A program made the translations under genes and the position numbers. The notes under the pieces were generated by a model. It ran no database searches. It worked only from the letters and a program-made list of their open reading frames with translations, and was not told the DNA's origin. 64,000 nt of DNA from an uncultured bacterium (lineage in GTDB: Bacteria > Bacteroidota > Ignavibacteria > Kapaibacteriales > UBA2268): NCBI GenBank assembly GCA_942490685.1, contig CALNXW010000016.1, positions 2,341,703-2,405,702 of the forward strand, read 5' to 3'. Shown piece by piece: positions 2,679-60,567 of the stretch. Every line of letters starts with the position of its first letter. The first letter of the stretch is position 1.

Positions 2679-3806
2679 GTGCTTCTTCTGCGGTTTGTTT
2701 TTTTATTTGTCTATTCTATTATGTATAAAACTCTAATCTATATTTTTATATTAGTTGCAACTTTCACAGCTACTCAAGCCAAAGACTCTTTATGCACCAT
2801 AGACAAACTATATTTCGGTCAAGTGCAATTTGATAATGACTCTTTGGAAAACAAGAGTTATGAGTTTTATATGCATCTGCCGGTAGGAATGGAAAGTACT
2901 TTCTATTTTAGGGAGTTAGCTGATAAAAAATACAGAAAGCTATTCCTCAATGTTGCTGACAACATAAGTACAAGTTCTTATTATAAGGATTCCATCACTA
3001 CTAGATTTCACTTCGGAGATGCAGAGATTACTCTGGATACAAATTATTCTCTTGAAATGCTATCGGCAGATATGAAAATAAGAAGAAAATTCTCCAAGGG
3101 AATAGGTTCTTATGATAGAGATGACAGCATCCGAATTATAATGATGTCTCAAGATCCTGAGGAGATTGCAGAAACTATCAAAGTGCTGGAAACAAATTAT
3201 ATAATCCCCAGACCACTTGACAGAATGAATGATTACTGGGCTACAGTAAGCGTACTTCCCGGAAGAAATGAGTTTAGTTTCCAAGGAAATTATTTTTCTT
3301 ATATGGGCAAGTTCGATTCAGAACCCTACCCCTTTTTAACATTTACTTTCCCTAATATATCAGTTGTGTATGACAAAAACGGCTTCAGAAGATATTCCTA
3401 TCAAGCAGCTGCGATTCCATTATTGGGTGGCATAGCTGCTCTAAGTCCTCTCATTGATCATGAATCTTCAGTGCTATTTTGGGCACCCGGTTTCATATTC
3501 GGCTTCTTGTCGGCAATATCAAATCCCGGTGTAGACTTCCATATTTCAGGAATAGACAATTATTTTTCGTTTTACTGCAAGTTAAACTGGGACATACTAA
3601 TAGTTGAAGTACCGGATATTAAAGATTATAAACAACCTGACAACTTCTTTGTCGAGCCAAAAATTGGCTTTAGATATTTGAATGTAAGAGGGTTTGGTTT
3701 TGAGGCATTTGCAGGTTATAGAATATGGAATTTCCCATTGACTTTAAGTCATGAACATGCATTTGCAGGAGTTGCAATAATAATTCCAATAGCAGACTTA
3801 GATTAG
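2679..3806 (+). CDS. Hypothetical secreted protein
   Basis: Long ORF with a hydrophobic N-terminus; the real start is probably at MYKTLIYIFILVATFTATQA. No recognisable motif. Confidence 0.35.
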   Translation: MLLLRFVFLFVYSIMYKTLIYIFILVATFTATQAKDSLCTIDKLYFGQVQFDNDSLENKSYEFYMHLPVGMESTFYFRELADKKYRKLFLNVADNISTSSYYKDSITTRFHFGDAEITLDTNYSLEMLSADMKIRRKFSKGIGSYDRDDSIRIIMMSQDPEEIAETIKVLETNYIIPRPLDRMNDYWATVSVLPGRNEFSFQGNYFSYMGKFDSEPYPFLTFTFPNISVVYDKNGFRRYSYQAAAIPLLGGIAALSPLIDHESSVLFWAPGFIFGFLSAISNPGVDFHISGIDNYFSFYCKLNWDILIVEVPDIKDYKQPDNFFVEPKIGFRYLNVRGFGFEAFAGYRIWNFPLTLSHEHAFAGVAIIIPIADLD

Positions 3807-3956
3807 AGAATCTTATACTTTATATCCGATATATATTTTATTCAAAGGATTGAATTTTTATCCTTCCTGTTTGATATATGACAGACAGTTGTCACACATC
3901 AATACTTAAGTTTGTATAGTTATTTGAAACACTATATATAAACTTAGAGTACAACA

Positions 3957-55290: not shown

Positions 55291-56300
55291 TGGGGAAAAA
55301 GAAAACATCACAGCACAAGTCAAGCAAAACTAGAATTGACAAAAGCATGGCGGTAGAGTACAATTATCACTTACCGGTTATGCTTAAGGAAACAATAGAT
55401 TTTCTGGTTACAGACACAAATGGTATTTATATAGACGGAACGCTCGGAGGTGGTGGGCATGCAGCCGAGATATTGTCAAAGTTAGATTCTGGGGGGAATT
55501 TAAGAGCCTTTGACAAACACATCACAGCTATCGAGCATTGCAATGCAAGATTTAGTGATGAACTCAAAAGAGGAACCTCGAGTCGTCTCCGTTTATATAA
55601 TTACTGCTATTCTAAGGTCTGCACCTTCGATGAAATTAGGGGGCAAATATCAGGTCTCTTGTTGGATCTTGGCGTTTCCTCAAAGCAGTTAGACACAGAC
55701 TCTCTCGGACTTAGTTACAGAGTAGATTCCAAACTCGATATGAGATTTGGAGATACTGGTTTGACGGCAGGGGACCTGTTATCTACCATTACAGAACCCG
55801 AACTTATCGACATTCTCCGAAATTACGGCGAAGAGCCTATGGCGAAACGAATCGCCCACAGCATCATCCAAAGAAGAAATTCCAACACAATGAACACTAC
55901 TTTTGATTTGCGCGAAGCTGTCGAAGAACGAGTGCCTCAATCGCTGCATTTTAAGGCCTTGTCACGTGTTTTTCAAGCTATTCGAATTGCGGTAAATCAA
56001 GAGCTGAAAGTGCTCGAAGATACGCTCAAAGGCATTATTCCTATGCTCGCTCCGGGTGGAAGGATTGTAATACTCTCCTACCATTCACTGGAAGACAGGA
56101 TTGTAAAAAATATTTTTAAAGAGCATTCCAAAAAGCCTAAAGTGAACAGGCAACATCCAGATTTTGACAAAGTTAAGCACACTCCGCCTCTAACTTTGCT
56201 CACACCTAAACCCATGCTCCCAAGTGAGCATGAAATCCAAATAAATCCTCGTGCACGCAGCGCTAAGCTCAGAGTAGCTGAAAAGACTGTAGTGGAGTAG
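55290..56300 (+). CDS. rsmH: 16S rRNA (cytosine1402-N4)-methyltransferase RsmH
   Basis: HLPVMLKETIDFL...GIYIDGTLGGGGHA is the SAM-dependent MTase N-terminal signature. The real start may be M20 (MAVEYNYHLPVML). No ftsL or ftsI follow. Confidence 0.9.
   Translation: MGKKKTSQHKSSKTRIDKSMAVEYNYHLPVMLKETIDFLVTDTNGIYIDGTLGGGGHAAEILSKLDSGGNLRAFDKHITAIEHCNARFSDELKRGTSSRLRLYNYCYSKVCTFDEIRGQISGLLLDLGVSSKQLDTDSLGLSYRVDSKLDMRFGDTGLTAGDLLSTITEPELIDILRNYGEEPMAKRIAHSIIQRRNSNTMNTTFDLREAVEERVPQSLHFKALSRVFQAIRIAVNQELKVLEDTLKGIIPMLAPGGRIVILSYHSLEDRIVKNIFKEHSKKPKVNRQHPDFDKVKHTPPLTLLTPKPMLPSEHEIQINPRARSAKLRVAEKTVVE
56272..56294 (+). repeat. Left copy of the 21-23 bp direct repeat flanking the three-Cys/TcmP cassette (the last codons of rsmH)
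   Basis: AGTAGCTGAAAAGACTGTAGTG recurs at 58421-58443 as AGTAGCTGAAAAGACTGTGGTG, one mismatch. Confidence 0.8.
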
Positions 56301-56308
56301 GATCCTAA

Positions 56309-57058
56309 TTATAAATAAAAACTATTATATATGCTTGAAGGAAATTCCTGCCATACCTGGCCATCAATTTCTTTTCCATTGGACTTTTTATTTCGCTTAA
56401 TTTTATCAGCTCCCCAAGTACCCCATTGTTTGAAGAAGAATGCTACATTTTTCTTCTCGCATTGTTGTTTAATATTTAGTACCCATTCTTTATCCATTGG
56501 TCTGGCTTGTACCCCACTTTCACCACCAACAATGACCCAATCTATTCCTTCAAGATTTAACTCTCCTAAATCCTCCAATAGAGGTTCCACTGAAAGAAAT
56601 TTTACTGATGCTTTCATATCTCTAAGATAATCGATTCTTGGTATGCCTTCTTTTCTATTTTCGACAGTTACTCCTAGCCAAATATTTTTGGGAATACTTC
56701 TTTGAGTTAAGTATTCTGCCATAGCTTTAGCACGCTTAGTTAGAATCTGATAAGTATGTTGAGGAGTGTTTTCTATTACATCAAAAATTTGATCCAGATA
56801 TTCTTTTGGCATTTTTTCGTGGAAAATATCACTCATTGAGTTCACGAAATATACTGTAGGCTTCTTTCTTTTATAAGGATCTAATAATCTACTTGGTACA
56901 AGTTGAAACTCAAAACCATTTTCATATCCTTCGACATTCATTGCTTTAAGCCTTCTAGCCATAGTTTCTGCATAGCAGTTTTTGCATCCTGAACTCACTT
57001 TTGTGCATCCGGCTGACGGATTCCAAGTTTGTTCAGTCCATTCTATTTTATGAGCCAT
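56309..57058 (-). CDS. Phage Gp37/Gp68-family (DUF5131-like) three-Cys-motif protein
   Basis: The probable start M29 (MAHKIEWTEQTWNPSAGCTKVSSGCKNCYAE) gives ~250 aa. W-N-P followed by C-x6-C-x2-C matches the family signature as I recall it. The ORF track extends the start to 57142. Confidence 0.6.
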   Translation of the reverse strand: MAHKIEWTEQTWNPSAGCTKVSSGCKNCYAETMARRLKAMNVEGYENGFEFQLVPSRLLDPYKRKKPTVYFVNSMSDIFHEKMPKEYLDQIFDVIENTPQHTYQILTKRAKAMAEYLTQRSIPKNIWLGVTVENRKEGIPRIDYLRDMKASVKFLSVEPLLEDLGELNLEGIDWVIVGGESGVQARPMDKEWVLNIKQQCEKKNVAFFFKQWGTWGADKIKRNKKSNGKEIDGQVWQEFPSSIYNSFYL

Positions 57059-57177
57059 GATTCTTTCCCCCCCAGGTGTGAATTTTGAATCTATTTTGGC
57101 AAAATTATCAATATTATTTTTAAAGGCGATTGAAAAACACAATATTGCAAGTCTTTTTAAAACAATAAAGTTGTATT

Positions 57178-58305
57178 TTATTTTTTTTCTTGTAATATAA
57201 ATCGTACCTTTCTTTTATCATTACCAATATAATTCCCCTTATTAGAGCCTTTATCTAATGATATGACTTCCAATCTTTTTTCATTATTGAAAGTTTTTAA
57301 AATCTCATTAGTATGTTTTGGCAACATATCATTTTTTAATCCAAATTCAAAAAGATCATGATTAGTTACTATCTCTGTATTTGTCAAATATTCTTCAAGT
57401 TTGTCTTTATATGTAATTTTTTTTAAACTGAATAATTGCGTTGTTTTATTTTGATTATATCCTTTGCCTTCTTCATTGTCCATTTTCCATTTTGCTTCAA
57501 GCATAGCTTTATGCCCCTGTTTATTTGGAGAAAAGAACATCAAACAATAGAATTTATTTGTTTCCTTTTCAATGTGAAAGTAAGAAATCCAACGATTGGG
57601 AAATTTTGATTTGAAGCGATTACTTAAGCTTTCTATGAACACTAATGCTGACGTATGTTGTTTTAATTTCTCTGGAAAAAGATAATCAATCAATTTCTTT
57701 AATGGCAAAAAACCTTTGTTTTCTTTTTCTTGAACGGTGTATGCAAACCTATACATTTGATCTATTGGTAGAAAAAGCAAAAGCTCGGCTTTATCATTAT
57801 TTAAAACTTTTTCTAGAAAATCTATAGTTATATCTTTGTATCCAAATGGATCTATAAATAAAAGTGCACGTTCATTTTTTTTCAATCCATATAGACTAGA
57901 CAATACTTTAGGAATTAATTCTGTAAACTCTCGCCTTGTAAACTTATATTCTACTTTAGGATTTTCAAATCTTGAAACACAAAAATTTTGGACACGTTCA
58001 ATTTTCCATTTGTCTTCTTCTATTGTAGACTTTTGACTATCATTAAAATGGAAATAAATATTAGGTATAGATTTAAATTTTTCTAAATGTTCCTTTACAA
58101 CATTAACAGCTATCAATGGACTACCTTCTTGGCTATCTTCATAAATACCTTCACCTGCGAATAAATCATATAAATACACATTCTTAATATTTTTCGCATA
58201 ATCTACGATATTTAGATATACAGATAAATAATATTTATAAAGCTCGACTTTAGCAACTGAATGTGACGGTAGTATTGCAGAATCTCCTTTCTTTTTCACT
58301 TTCAT
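57178..58305 (-). CDS. Putative three-Cys-motif partner protein (TcmP-like), co-oriented immediately upstream of the Gp37/Gp68-like gene
   Basis: 375 aa, 36-bp gap to the downstream gene. Size and genomic pairing fit the TcmP (TIGR04474) / DUF5131 pair. Sequence-level membership could not be verified without an HMM. Confidence 0.4.
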   Translation of the reverse strand: MKVKKKGDSAILPSHSVAKVELYKYYLSVYLNIVDYAKNIKNVYLYDLFAGEGIYEDSQEGSPLIAVNVVKEHLEKFKSIPNIYFHFNDSQKSTIEEDKWKIERVQNFCVSRFENPKVEYKFTRREFTELIPKVLSSLYGLKKNERALLFIDPFGYKDITIDFLEKVLNNDKAELLLFLPIDQMYRFAYTVQEKENKGFLPLKKLIDYLFPEKLKQHTSALVFIESLSNRFKSKFPNRWISYFHIEKETNKFYCLMFFSPNKQGHKAMLEAKWKMDNEEGKGYNQNKTTQLFSLKKITYKDKLEEYLTNTEIVTNHDLFEFGLKNDMLPKHTNEILKTFNNEKRLEVISLDKGSNKGNYIGNDKRKVRFILQEKK

Positions 58306-58420
58306 CTAACACCCCTCATTATCTCAATATTAATTATTACACGATACAATACAATATAATATTATTATTTATTAAATTCTAAGCAATAATCCTTATTATT
58401 ATAATTTTTTTATTTATCAC

Positions 58421-58443
58421 TAGTAGCTGAAAAGACTGTGGTG
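58421..58443 (+). repeat. Right copy of the rsmH-3'-end direct repeat
   Basis: See the 56272..56294 entry. Confidence 0.8.
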
Positions 58444-58455
58444 CTGTGGTATGCT

Positions 58456-58487
58456 TACCGCAAGCTAAAGCATGCGGTTGCACTGTA
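58456..58487 (+). repeat. REP-like palindromic element, left copy 1
   Basis: TACCGCAAGCTAAAGCATGCGGTTGCACTGTA. Its reverse complement recurs at 59257-59285. Confidence 0.65.
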
Positions 58488-58643
58488 GATCATTATCCAC
58501 TTTGTTTTTGGTTTTATTAGTATATATCTATTTAAATATCAGTAGCAATAAGCATTGAGACACGTGCCGCAAACTACACTTTCCTACGACGATACTTTGG
58601 ATAAACTTTTCGCTTTGTTTGCGGCTATCGAGCTTGTCGAGAT

Positions 58644-58670
58644 GCAGTGAAATTGTGCGGTTGCACTGTA
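58644..58670 (+). repeat. REP-like element, left copy 2 (shares the core TGCGGTTGCACTGTA)
   Basis: GCAGTGAAATTGTGCGGTTGCACTGTA, internally palindromic (CAGTG...CACTG). Confidence 0.55.
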
Positions 58671-58710
58671 AATACAATTTATGTTTATTTGAATCATCTT
58701 ATATTCTAGT

Positions 58711-59241
58711 TTGAAGAAACTATATTACTTCTATTCTCCAATTGTTTTTGATATTATTAATATGGAACTAAATAATAAGATTTGGCATGTAACTTGGGTT
58801 ACTCGTAATAGTCGTATCAGTGAAAGAATGATACTGGCGCGAGTAAAGCTTGAGAATCCAGTCACACTGACTGATGAAATGCGTAATATTGTTGCAGAAA
58901 GTATCAAATTAAAGATTAAAGAAGAATCAATAAAGATTTATGCTCTTAATGTTCTAATGGATCATGTTCATATTATAATTCAATCGTCTGAAACTGAACT
59001 TGAAGAAATTGTGCGTAAGTTAAAAGGCTATTCCTCTTATCAAATATCCAAAACTTTGGGTTACACATCAAAAGGTCAAGGCAAACAAACTAAAATCTGG
59101 GCTACCAGCTTCAGCAAAACTTTAATCAGAGATAAAAAGCATCTTTTAGAATCAATCAACTACATTAAAAATAACCACCTAAAACATAATGTTACTCCAT
59201 GTAAAGCACTCTTGTTTTTCTCACAGAGTCCAATAAAGTAA
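58711..59241 (+). CDS. HUH-family Y1 transposase (IS200/IS605 TnpA-like; REP-associated tyrosine transposase candidate)
   Basis: HuH motif HVHIIIQ. Conserved KGYSSYQIS and a C-terminal catalytic Tyr context (SINYIKNNH). The real start is probably M18 (MELNNKIWHVTW), giving ~159 aa. Confidence 0.75.
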   Translation: MKKLYYFYSPIVFDIINMELNNKIWHVTWVTRNSRISERMILARVKLENPVTLTDEMRNIVAESIKLKIKEESIKIYALNVLMDHVHIIIQSSETELEEIVRKLKGYSSYQISKTLGYTSKGQGKQTKIWATSFSKTLIRDKKHLLESINYIKNNHLKHNVTPCKALLFFSQSPIK

Positions 59242-59256
59242 TATTAAAATATATAA

Positions 59257-59285
59257 GAGTGCAACCGCATGCTTTAGCTTGCGGA
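59257..59285 (-). repeat. REP-like element, right copy (inverted)
   Basis: GAGTGCAACCGCATGCTTTAGCTTGCGGA is the reverse complement of left copy 1, 27 of 28 positions. Confidence 0.65.
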
Positions 59286-59694
59286 GCTTTATCAAGAGCT
59301 TCATGTCTCAGATCTGTACTTAGGTGAAACTTGACGCTATTTACTGTTCCCTATAGCTCAAAGTTTCGAACTGGTCAATATTCCCAAGCATAGCGAAAAG
59401 TTAATCTTAGGCTCAGTCTAAGAAAAGTGCAGCTTACAAAGCTTTGAATAACCTAAAAAATCAGATGACATAAATATTAATTATTCACCACAGTGCAATC
59501 CCTGAGTATATATATTTGATATATAATAACTAGATTCTAACAGTCTCATACAATCATCATTATGAAAGCTATTGACTTGAGTGGACTTACACCGTATCTT
59601 TGTATATATAAACTCATGACAAGAAGAATTTTGGCCAAGGTTCGAAGTATAGTTTGGAAGAAGAAAAATATATCAAAAATATAGGAAAAAAAAG

Positions 59695-60567
59695 ATGATT
59701 GATCTAAACACAGTTAAGGTTCTATACAAATATAGAACTTTTGAGAGCAAATTTGACAGACGTCTACTTTGGCTTAACGAATTATTTTTTGCCAAGAAGC
59801 ATATGCTGAATGATCCTTTCGACTTAGGACTTGAGCCTGATTATTCTCAGACAACAAAAGATCAATGGTGTAAAGTGGCATTAAGAAGTATCAATTCAAA
59901 TCAAGTGTTATCAGATAACCAGAGAGTAAAACTTCTAAAAGAAGAAATAATAAAAATTGATAATGGGACGAGTGATTTGCAAAAGAATCACAAAGAAGCA
60001 ATTTTTGGAAATGCACGAAATGAAAATAAGGAATTCAAAGAAGGAAAGATAAACAAAATGTGCATTCTTTCTCTTGTTGCTGACAACCCAACTAATTCTC
60101 TAATGTGGGCACATTATTCATCCTCACACCAAGGTTTTTGTATAGGATATAACGCCACTGAGCTTTTTAATTATCTTACAACATTGAAAGACCAACATGA
60201 ATTTACTCAATTAGCTGTAAAGTATAAAGACTATTATCCTAAAGTAAATCCATTAACTAGCACAGAATTTTATCTAGACCTACTCTACACAAAATCTATT
60301 GAATGGGATTATGAAGATGAAGTGAGGATAATCAACGAAACCACACATCCGAACCATAATAATGGATTTGCAATTTACTATCCAAATAAACTTGTTCGTG
60401 ATATAACCTTAGGCTTATATTGTTCGGAAGAGAACAGAAACATGGTCGTTAATCGTATTAATGAAATGAATTCACTCCACAATCTTTCTATAAAATTGTA
60501 TCAAATAACAAAAGAAGATTATTCCTACGAGTTTAAAAGAAAAGACATTTCGGAACTCTTAAGTTAA
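59695..60567 (+). CDS. Hypothetical protein, DUF2971-like
   Basis: 290 aa. The N-terminal LYKYRTFES...LNELFFAKKHMLNDPFD resembles the conserved N-terminal block of DUF2971 proteins, from memory only. Confidence 0.4.
   Translation: MIDLNTVKVLYKYRTFESKFDRRLLWLNELFFAKKHMLNDPFDLGLEPDYSQTTKDQWCKVALRSINSNQVLSDNQRVKLLKEEIIKIDNGTSDLQKNHKEAIFGNARNENKEFKEGKINKMCILSLVADNPTNSLMWAHYSSSHQGFCIGYNATELFNYLTTLKDQHEFTQLAVKYKDYYPKVNPLTSTEFYLDLLYTKSIEWDYEDEVRIINETTHPNHNNGFAIYYPNKLVRDITLGLYCSEENRNMVVNRINEMNSLHNLSIKLYQITKEDYSYEFKRKDISELLS

Follow-up and report, generated by a model that had tools for sequence, protein, structure and literature searches.

The DNA considered here, referred to as the window, is a 64,000-nucleotide (nt) stretch of contig CALNXW010000016.1 from an uncultured bacterium of the Kapaibacteriales. 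The element under study is a small gene for a Y1 transposase-like protein of the HUH (histidine-hydrophobic-histidine) type, which is enclosed by short inverted hairpins resembling repetitive extragenic palindromes (REP). L001 and L002 are the loci of two orthologues in other genomes. The features of the locus, in window coordinates, are the following:

58458-58484, minus strand: REP-L1, which reads on the minus strand as a 5'-AGTGCAA foot (58478-84) and the hairpin CCGCATGC-TTTA-GCTTGCGG (58458-58477) with a T.T mismatch
58491-58655, plus strand: REP-associated module of 165 nt between the full upstream REP and the half-REP, delimited by three-way alignment and blastn
58656-58673, plus strand: half-REP, TGCGGTTGCACTGTAAAT, a 3' half-stem with its foot; direct repeat of 58473-58490 (94%), aligning with a full REP of L001
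58674-58761, plus strand: 5' leader from the REP to the ATG, 93% identical to L002 and 73% to L001, the DNA outside the REPs being unalignable
58762-59241, plus strand: Y1/HUH gene, ATG start, 159 amino acids (aa), with the motifs HVTWVTRNSRISERM, NVLMDHVH (HUH), LKGYSS, IWA and Y134-IKNNHLKH
59258-59284, plus strand: REP-R1, an AGTGCAA foot (59258-59264) and the CCGCATGC-TTTA-GCTTGCGG hairpin (59265-59284), beginning 16 nt past the stop codon
59366-59435, minus strand: inverted, degenerate copy of the core of the module, corresponding to ~58571-58640 read as reverse complement
59490-59501, plus strand: REP remnant, ACAGTGCAATCC (ACAGTGCAA + TCC), whose counterpart in L002 is a full REP that closes the inverted module of that locus

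The window protein matches the Pfam family Y1_Tnp (PF01797) with 48.5 bits against a cutoff of 23 (E=1.1e-12). The HUH motif is D-H-V-H-I-I-I (D67, H68, H70), the tyrosine motif is Y134-IKNNHLKH, and in a 24-member clade alignment the HUH motif, the Tyr and the Asn at +4 are invariant or nearly so. An HUH motif and a single Tyr in a C-terminal helix, with PF01797 above its gathering score, assign the protein to the TnpA-Y1 superfamily, and it has the ferredoxin-like HUH fold with the Tyr helix. A preliminary description of this DNA, which proposed an open reading frame (ORF) of 159-176 aa with the HUH and Tyr motifs of the IS200/IS605 TnpA kind, is sustained by the Pfam match, H68/H70 and Y134. 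The 176-aa version is the ORF 58711-59241 (+), with an alternative TTG start; the ATG start agrees with both orthologues. No second copy of the gene is present in the window.

The gene is bracketed by a perfect 27-nt inverted repeat, CCGCAAGCTAAAGCATGCGGTTGCACT, at 58458-58484 and 59258-59284, with both feet toward the gene, which is the arrangement of inverted REP hairpins around a gene that distinguishes a REPtron. As single-stranded DNA (ssDNA), each arm forms a stem of 5-6 bp that is followed by a mismatch and 2 more bp and capped by a loop of 4 nt; the folding energies lie between -7.4 and -10 kcal/mol, with z from -2.2 to -3.0 (for REP-L1, -9.6/-10 kcal/mol, z ~ -2.9). The fold, CCGCA-A-GC / TAAA / GC-A-TGCGG, has eight stem positions, one of them an A.A mismatch that appears as T.T in the opposite strand. 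The 14-mer given in the preliminary description occurs exactly 2 times in the 64 kb (0.13 expected; 0/100 shuffles reach 2), and a generic hairpin scan of the window finds 2 hairpins where 0.015 are expected. The palindromes had been described as two direct copies upstream and one inverted copy downstream. The inverted pair stands, whereas the second upstream copy (58656-58673) has only TGCGGTTGCACTGTA in common and lacks the left arm, which makes it a half-REP rather than a palindrome. The REP foot tetranucleotide GT[AG]G is not found at the hairpins, and all Kapabacteria copies have (A/T)(G/T)TGCAA in this place. A GTAG in the window sits 7 nt away on the other side of the hairpin (CTGTAG), and on the plus strand GTAGAT (58485-58490) directly follows REP-L1.

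A word-indexed protein search returns only three close relatives of the window protein. P0003, encoded at L001 in the 3.8-Mb 'Candidatus Kapabacteria' metagenome-assembled genome (MAG) OY761611.1, has 80% aa identity, and the L002 protein has 84%. The genes lexA(-)-mraZ-rsmH precede the Y1 gene in both the window and L001, which is a plain REP-gene-REP locus with the same 27-mers as the window. Between these two loci the synonymous divergence (dS) is 0.73 and dN/dS is 0.166, the coding sequence is 81% identical, the DNA past the REPs is unalignable (34%), and both REPs are 27/27 identical. REP-L1 is identical in L001 and L002. REP-R1 agrees with L001 at 27/27 positions and with L002 at 26/27, with 81-83% identity in the coding sequence and 34-50% in the DNA just downstream. 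The gene appears to be single or low in copy number, vertically inherited and housekeeping-like, with one copy in the window and synteny with L001 at dS 0.73. Only one hairpin-flanked Y1 gene is found among the matches in OY761611.1. L002 contains extra REPs, as well as the module, at other positions and orientations, so the REP cluster around the gene is fluid in structure, unlike the gene and the hairpin themselves, which are constrained. The synteny leuS-Y1-GT2-recR-hisS is preserved in a second lineage, P0163/P0165.

The association between protein and hairpin is also found in more distant homologues, of which five more loci have hairpins with a shared GC-TAAA-GC apex and stems that covary. 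An exhaustive protein search gave 418 cluster representatives at E <=1e-3, and the DNA of six further homologue loci was compared. Inverted hairpins flank the Y1 gene likewise in L001, L002 and L197. In L197 (44% identity) the upstream CAAGAAGC.. and the inverted downstream CAGCAAGC.. hairpins have different stems with compensating bases and the same mismatch. L189 (homologue P0159, 49% identity) contains an array of 22 hairpins immediately upstream of the gene (2746-3915), similar to a bacterial interspersed mosaic element (BIME), in which CAGATAGC-TTTA-GCTATATG and CACACAGC-TAAA-GCTGTGGG types alternate with a period of ~69 nt. L190-L193 (39-40% identity; leuS-Y1-GT2 synteny, two species) show an inverted doublet upstream and a hairpin inside the gene. 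The latter (L190 4288-4307, L192 4315-4334) is CCGACAGC-TAAA-GC(T/A)GTCGG + TTGCAG and encodes RQLKLSV(A) between the HUH and Tyr motifs. The peptide [RK]xL[KQ]LSV.G.GRQ is common in the clade and decayed in the window protein (SKTLGYTSKGQGKQ). In the Leptospiria MAG locus L045 a hairpin stands in frame after the Y1 domain, and in L040, from an Anaerolineaceae MAG, one lies upstream of the gene. The L040 gene (800-1500, minus strand) encodes a Y1 protein with DHMH, WQ and YIENQKEHH, and is flanked by ~100-nt direct repeats, the upstream one opening with CCGCAAGCTGAAGCATGCGG + CTAG. In a set of 19 distinct Y1-associated hairpins, double-sided changes number 31 where 7.6 would be expected (0/500 shuffles); controls in which the register was slid collapse. 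The apex GC-T(A/G)AA-GC is conserved (second loop base G in 2/19) and stem pairs 2-5 covary.

In other genomes the hairpins are also dispersed without the gene. A scan of 185,579 species genomes for the 20-nt hairpin in 8 variants, for which ~9 chance matches are expected, yields 66 loci. OY761611.1 has 14 of these and the Kapaibacterium MAG OZ2231xx ~8. The gene-less copies in the genome of L001 amount to ~12 further intergenic loci, mostly inverted doublets, and no Kapabacteria copy lies inside an ORF of >=150 aa. Most Kapabacteria copies have the layout REP-A + TTGCA, 12-14 nt, TGCAA + REP-B (inverted, feet inward), with at least 10 such doublets in OY761611.1. In REP-B the stem bases are exchanged in a compensating manner (CCGAC/GTCGG, CAGAT/ATCTG) and the T.T mismatch is usually kept. 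Apart from the pair that flanks the gene, the window contains no doublet.

Other lineage-specific hairpin families occur in Poribacteria, Calditrichaeota, Bryobacterales and others. The same 20-nt hairpin is intergenic in these unrelated phyla, with flanks specific to each lineage: in Poribacteria (L009, L028, L029, L032, L051, L055, L061; flanks gtctacatc-hairpin-atttgac), Calditrichaeota (L033, L037, L052) and Bryobacterales (L019, L026, L049, L054), and also in L010, L046 and L047. No Y1 gene of the window clade is found within the 8-kb loci around the hairpins of these groups. A canonical GTAG foot (T-loop strand) accompanies the identical hairpin in Calditrichaeota, Bacteroidota, Ignavibacteria and Acidobacteriaceae contigs. 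A metagenome scan with the 15-mer AAGCATGCGGTTGCA returned at least 120 loci, which are regarded as chance matches because none contains a full REP. Kapabacteria loci also contain a second, unrelated palindrome, (TATACAG)CCGTGGGG-TTAA-CCCCACGG(CTGTATA) and variants of it (L006 2198-2217, L012 3798-3817, L044 1742-1907).

The best explanation of the locus, with a probability of roughly 0.7, is a REPtron-like unit in which a Y1/HUH tyrosine nuclease-transposase of the TnpA-Y1 superfamily, present in single copy and passed on vertically, is combined with the hairpins that it would recognise. This reading is backed by the fold, the catalytic motifs, the hairpins and their extreme conservation, the synteny, the gene-less copies of the relatives and the recurrent association of protein and hairpin. 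In addition, the NCBI model REP_Tyr_transpos (NF047646) scores best, and above the IS200 model, for 24/24 tested members of the clade. The view of the preliminary description that this is a unit similar to those of the REP-associated tyrosine transposases (RAYT) is supported by these same features.

The mechanism is modelled on the work on IS608 TnpA and E. coli TnpA-REP (PMC3333891, PMC3479197, PMC8266576). The protein would bind the REP as a single-stranded hairpin with an 8-bp stem, the T.T/A.A mismatch, the GC-T(T/A)(T/A)A-GC apex and the TGCAA foot. H68/H70 would form the metal site with N138, and Y134 would be the nucleophile that yields a 5'-phosphotyrosine, the ssDNA being cut and rejoined beside the hairpin, presumably on strands exposed by replication. 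This activity may maintain, rearrange and occasionally copy the REPs, the doublets and the REP-linked 165-nt module, while the gene stays put. The binding, the chemistry of cleavage, the active strand, and the movement of the dispersed copies by this protein and not by another transposase are all points that we infer by analogy.

Published REP/RAYT systems already include those of Bacteroidetes, Chlorobia, Cyanobacteria and Ignavibacterium album (PMC6006769 including Table S1; PMC5581495), so the earlier remark that the arrangement is known mainly from Proteobacteria is out of date. In the classification of Quentin, class 2 RAYTs have Y---NP, subclass 1.1 has Y---Q, and subclass 1.2 has Y---Q--HH and WQ and is without REP (PMC6006769). 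The motifs of the window protein, DHVH / WA / Y-I-x-N-N-H-x-K-H, appear to fit none of the twelve published subclasses. Common to the window protein and all its close homologues is Y-[IV]-x-N-N-H-x-K-H, in which the +4 Asn is kept and the Pro is replaced by His/Arg. Judged on these motifs, the window unit is a putative RAYT-like REPtron of a distinct, undescribed Y1 clade. The term RAYT-like is used, and the protein is not filed as a class-2 RAYT, because it lacks the Y---NP signature and stays below the cutoff of NF047646.

The nearest system in behaviour is subclass 2.4 / RAYT Group 4, a placement made on published descriptions. The likeness lies in the taxonomic neighbourhood (Cyanobacteria, Chlorobia, Bacteroidetes), the low REP copy number and the Y-I-x-N-N start of the Tyr motif. 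Group 4 has ~14 replicon-wide copies of its flanking 16-mers (Bertels et al., PMC5581495), which is of the same order as the 14 loci in OY761611.1. Subclass 2.4 is described with NH[IFV]H, WQ and YIxNNP and with REP hairpins in frame within the gene (PMC6006769). A REP inside the gene is found in the homologues (P0163/P0165; loci L190 and L192) and not in the window gene. The window protein differs at three positions, with DHVH and not NH[IFV]H, WA and not WQ, and NNH-KH and not NNP, and lengths of 150-170 aa compare with a median of 194. In subclasses 2.7/2.8 the REPs, such as that of Ignavibacterium album AFH48914.1, GTAG-GACAGGC-TTTA-GCCTGTC (PMC6006769 Table S1), come from a related host lineage and have the same hairpin design, namely a GC-rich stem of 7-8 bp, a TTTA/TTCA tetraloop closed by GC, and a foot that is short and lies on the 5' side. 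These subclasses have Y---NP and a GTAG foot, whereas the window has a TGCAA foot and a conserved T.T mismatch. The exact window hairpin is not listed in Table S1 of PMC6006769.

The comparison with the E. coli REPtron (TnpA-REP/RayT, YafM, PDB 4ER8; subclass 2.2, Group 2) shows several differences. The two proteins are 22% identical, and DHVH/WA/Y---NH of the window contrasts with DHLH/WE/YIHYNP. The window REPs have a TGCAA foot, an 8-bp stem and a 4-nt loop, whereas those of E. coli have a GTAG foot and long bulged stems, and the copies number tens in the relatives of the window against hundreds in E. coli. The copies of the relatives resemble REP doublets forming hairpins (REPIN; PMC3116915) in being two inverted REPs with feet inward, 12-14 nt apart. 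They depart from the classical REPIN anatomy, since the doublets are central in an element of ~197 nt that has terminal inverted repeats (TIR) of its own, 12-18 nt in length.

Several results weigh against the REPtron-like unit. The window protein scores 72.8 bits on NF047646, below the cutoff of 80, and has Y-I-K-N-N-H in place of the class-2 signature Y---NP. Against PDB, the clade profile matches the IS200-type TnpA 2xm3 (2.4e-10) better than E. coli TnpA-REP 4er8 (3.3e-4); the profile was needed because a search with the window sequence alone gave only marginal matches (E 0.025 or worse) and no 4er8. No further hairpin copy is found in the 64-kb window, even with relaxed hairpin patterns, and the copy numbers of this hairpin are low relative to classical REPs. 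In the covariation set, the percentage of paired positions is partly high by construction, because the hairpins were selected with >=7/8 pairs; its informative part is that different loci have different stems and one apex. Finally, 16/19 dispersed copies in the relatives sit 57-78 nt inside a GAGGCTGTCTCA-type TIR, and a matching right end in 11 of those 16 defines an element of ~197 nt (up to 222 nt), so that their spread could be the work of another transposase.

This element has the TIRs GAGGCTGTCTCA(G/T)AAGTC ... GACTTATGAGACAGCCTC and the REP doublet at its centre. It is seen in OY761611.1 at L006, L014, L016, L021, L027, L043, L065 and L067, and in OZ2231xx at L008 (1172-1395, 222 nt), L025 and L057. 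There is no obvious target-site duplication. TTGAAG is frequent at the end of the left flanks, and a weaker similarity continues for ~30 nt past both ends. The terminal repeat GAGGCTGTCTCAKAAGTC of this putative miniature inverted-repeat transposable element has 0 matches in the window with up to 3 mismatches.

Part of the clade is built into restriction-modification (R-M) enzymes. Among the 150 best cluster representatives, 52 (about a third) have >=400 aa, and 7/7 of the long proteins scanned with Pfam show the Type IIG architecture HSDR_N/MmeI_N + N6_Mtase + Y1 + Eco57I + TaqI_C, in which Y1 splits the Eco57I/N6_Mtase domain. The insert (~150 aa, in frame) lies in enzymes of ~600-1300 aa, at a site between an EFPEVF-type motif and GGFDVVIGNPPY. 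In at least 36 long proteins NPPY follows the Y motif by 33-78 aa and the HUH and Tyr motifs are intact. The fused members include L045 2186-5602 (minus strand, Leptospiria MAG), P0005-P0011, P0017 and ~45 more. The L045 hairpin, CCGCAAGCTAAAGCATGCGG, is translated as NRKLKHAV directly after the Y1 insert. A rough neighbour-joining (NJ) tree, crude and built on a short domain, intermixes standalone and fused forms. No paper on Y1/IS200/HUH or TnpAREP fused to Type IIG R-M enzymes was found, within an incomplete literature coverage that makes this absence of evidence only. A tentative proposal, possible though less than even in probability, is that the window contains the free-standing form of an undescribed TnpA-Y1 clade, whose cassette of a gene plus a GC-TAAA-GC hairpin was built in frame, possibly repeatedly, into the EFPEVF-NPPY loop of IIG R-M enzymes. 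In such chimeras the HUH/Tyr ssDNA nuclease would remain intact, and even the hairpin would be translated (NRKLKHAV, RQLKLSV).

These fusions lead to an alternative explanation, in which the main role of the protein is ssDNA processing tied to R-M or defence, the standalone gene is a detached Y1 module and the hairpins are recognition or regulatory sites. The Type IIG architectures, the intact catalytic motifs, the in-frame hairpin of L045 and the mixed tree speak for it, as does the position of the window gene beside a TcmP/DUF5131 island and a DUF2971 gene. On the other hand, the island was inserted later, has a 22-nt direct repeat at its borders and is not in L001, other standalone homologues lie among housekeeping genes, no R-M gene adjoins a standalone copy among those examined, and the tree is the crude one mentioned above. 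This explanation is unlikely. A different proposal sees the hairpins as transcriptional or RNA elements (terminators, mRNA stabilisers) or as ends of the TIR element, with an incidental Y1 association. REPs often act at the RNA level and lie downstream of ORFs (PMC3733652), REP-R1 lies just past the stop codon, and the copies of the relatives are inside the TIR-bounded element. This proposal has very little probability. No terminator-like site was scored, there is no T-run, and the window has no TIR motif. Moreover, Y1-clade homologues are accompanied by the same hairpin type, with stems that covary, across six independent loci and phyla, and the hairpin is kept even within coding sequence.

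An ordinary autonomous IS200-type insertion sequence, perhaps a lone or decaying copy whose hairpins are the subterminal left and right ends, is quite improbable. The window protein shares with the IS200/IS605 TnpA (IS608, ISDra2) the core fold, DH[VI]H, the ssDNA hairpin logic and the small size, and its Y-I-K-N-x-x-x-x-H resembles YIKNQKEHH of subclass 1.2. It has Y---N and not the Y---Q of subclass 1.1, and scores 42.1 bits on the IS200 model NF033573, below the cutoff of 55. The hairpins are inverted, whereas IS200/IS605 ends have the same orientation on one strand. The gene occupies the same chromosomal site in genomes with near-saturated synonymous sites, the 3.8-Mb relative has one gene copy with these hairpins, and gene-less doublets exist. 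No TnpB, IscB or OrfB is present next to the window gene in Pfam and NCBIfam scans of the neighbours, so there is no sign of the IS605-type element for which the preliminary description proposed to look, and no homologue locus has a tnpB. With subclass 1.2, YIKNNHLKH shares only the last His, and the window has WA as well as REPs. The true 1.2-like protein of L040 (YIENQKEHH) scores 35 bits on the clade profile; this subclass is described as REP-less, yet L040 has the same hairpin upstream.

The surroundings of the REPtron-like unit show nested repeats. The 165-nt module has a GC content of 0.46 against ~0.22 in the adjoining spacers, and contains a long hairpin, GCCGCAAAC (58566-58574) / GTTTGCGGC (58617-58625), with a 42-nt loop. 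It is not in the L001 locus; L002 has it elsewhere in the other orientation (blastn, 82% over 214 nt, minus strand), and L008 holds part of it (84% over 58 nt) inside its copy of the TIR element. No protein similarity of the module was found. It is not a known RNA, as the window has no Rfam match at gathering thresholds except a tRNA and 58300-59700 gives only sub-threshold noise. The degenerate copy of the module core at 59366-59435 forms an ungapped local alignment of 70 nt with a score of 48 (shuffle mean 21.8, sd 3.2, maximum 35, 0/300; forward-orientation control 24), and is also visible in the alignment to the minus-strand module of L002. The REP remnant at 59490-59501, compared by reading with L002 2630-2660 (atctACAGTGCAACCGCATGC), is short and weak when taken alone. 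With the module, the inverted core copy and the remnant, the gene is bracketed by nested inverted repeats over ~58458-59501. An origin of the module as the tail of a Y1 pseudogene, considered from a 16-nt identity to a Leptospiria gene and an ORF reading 'SEKFIQSIVVG', was rejected when blastx of both flanks against all clade proteins gave nothing. The identity, AAGCATAGCGAAAAGT, lies at 59386-59401 in the degenerate downstream module and at ~3440-3460 (minus strand) in L045, where it falls in coding sequence (KHSEKS), at the point where the Y1 insert in the R-M gene ends; blastx gives the pseudogene origin no support here.

The leader at 58674-58761 is likely the promoter and untranslated region. 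Promoter and terminator scans gave a single sigma-70-like match at 58748-58776, not above chance, and no terminator-like site. The neighbours of the Y1 gene are TcmP ('three-Cys-motif partner', TIGR04474) and DUF5131 on one side and DUF2971 (59695-60567) on the other. The DUF5131 and TcmP pair lies between rsmH and the REPtron, in an island of ~56295-58443 whose borders are marked by copies of the rsmH 3' end, a direct repeat of 22 nt with 1 mismatch, at 56273-56294 and 58422-58443. The island is not in the orthologous locus L001 and its end is 14 nt from REP-L1. It looks like a site-specifically inserted 2.1-kb islet, and the second repeat copy would stay in frame through the REP up to the TAG of CTGTAG. 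The 176-aa version retrieves two short Logan contigs of the same strain, which are 100% and 99.9% identical (the latter with 4 small gaps); they show no structural variation and give no population evidence for mobility. Both stop at 59643-59674, ~400-430 nt past the Y1 stop and just before the DUF2971 gene, which suggests a repeat or strain-variable junction, as two independent contigs end there.

REP/RAYT is the best-known case of a domesticated bacterial transposase that lives with its own population of mini-elements. To our knowledge, almost all the mechanistic work on these systems concerns E. coli and Pseudomonas. The locus described here is a compact REP/RAYT-like example from an uncultured lineage related to the Bacteroidota, with a protein whose motifs place it outside all twelve subclasses published so far. 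The hairpin of this locus, short and sharply defined by apex, mismatch and foot, is common to several phyla and is consequently a clean substrate for learning how Y1 enzymes read hairpins. The connection with R-M enzymes is the part most worth following. If the proposed cassette is real, REP-type hairpins and Y1 enzymes would have a second life in defence enzymes, a biology that the standalone Kapabacteria gene may share, and if the R-M inserts hold up they would tie REP-type ssDNA nucleases to defence systems in a way that is open to testing.

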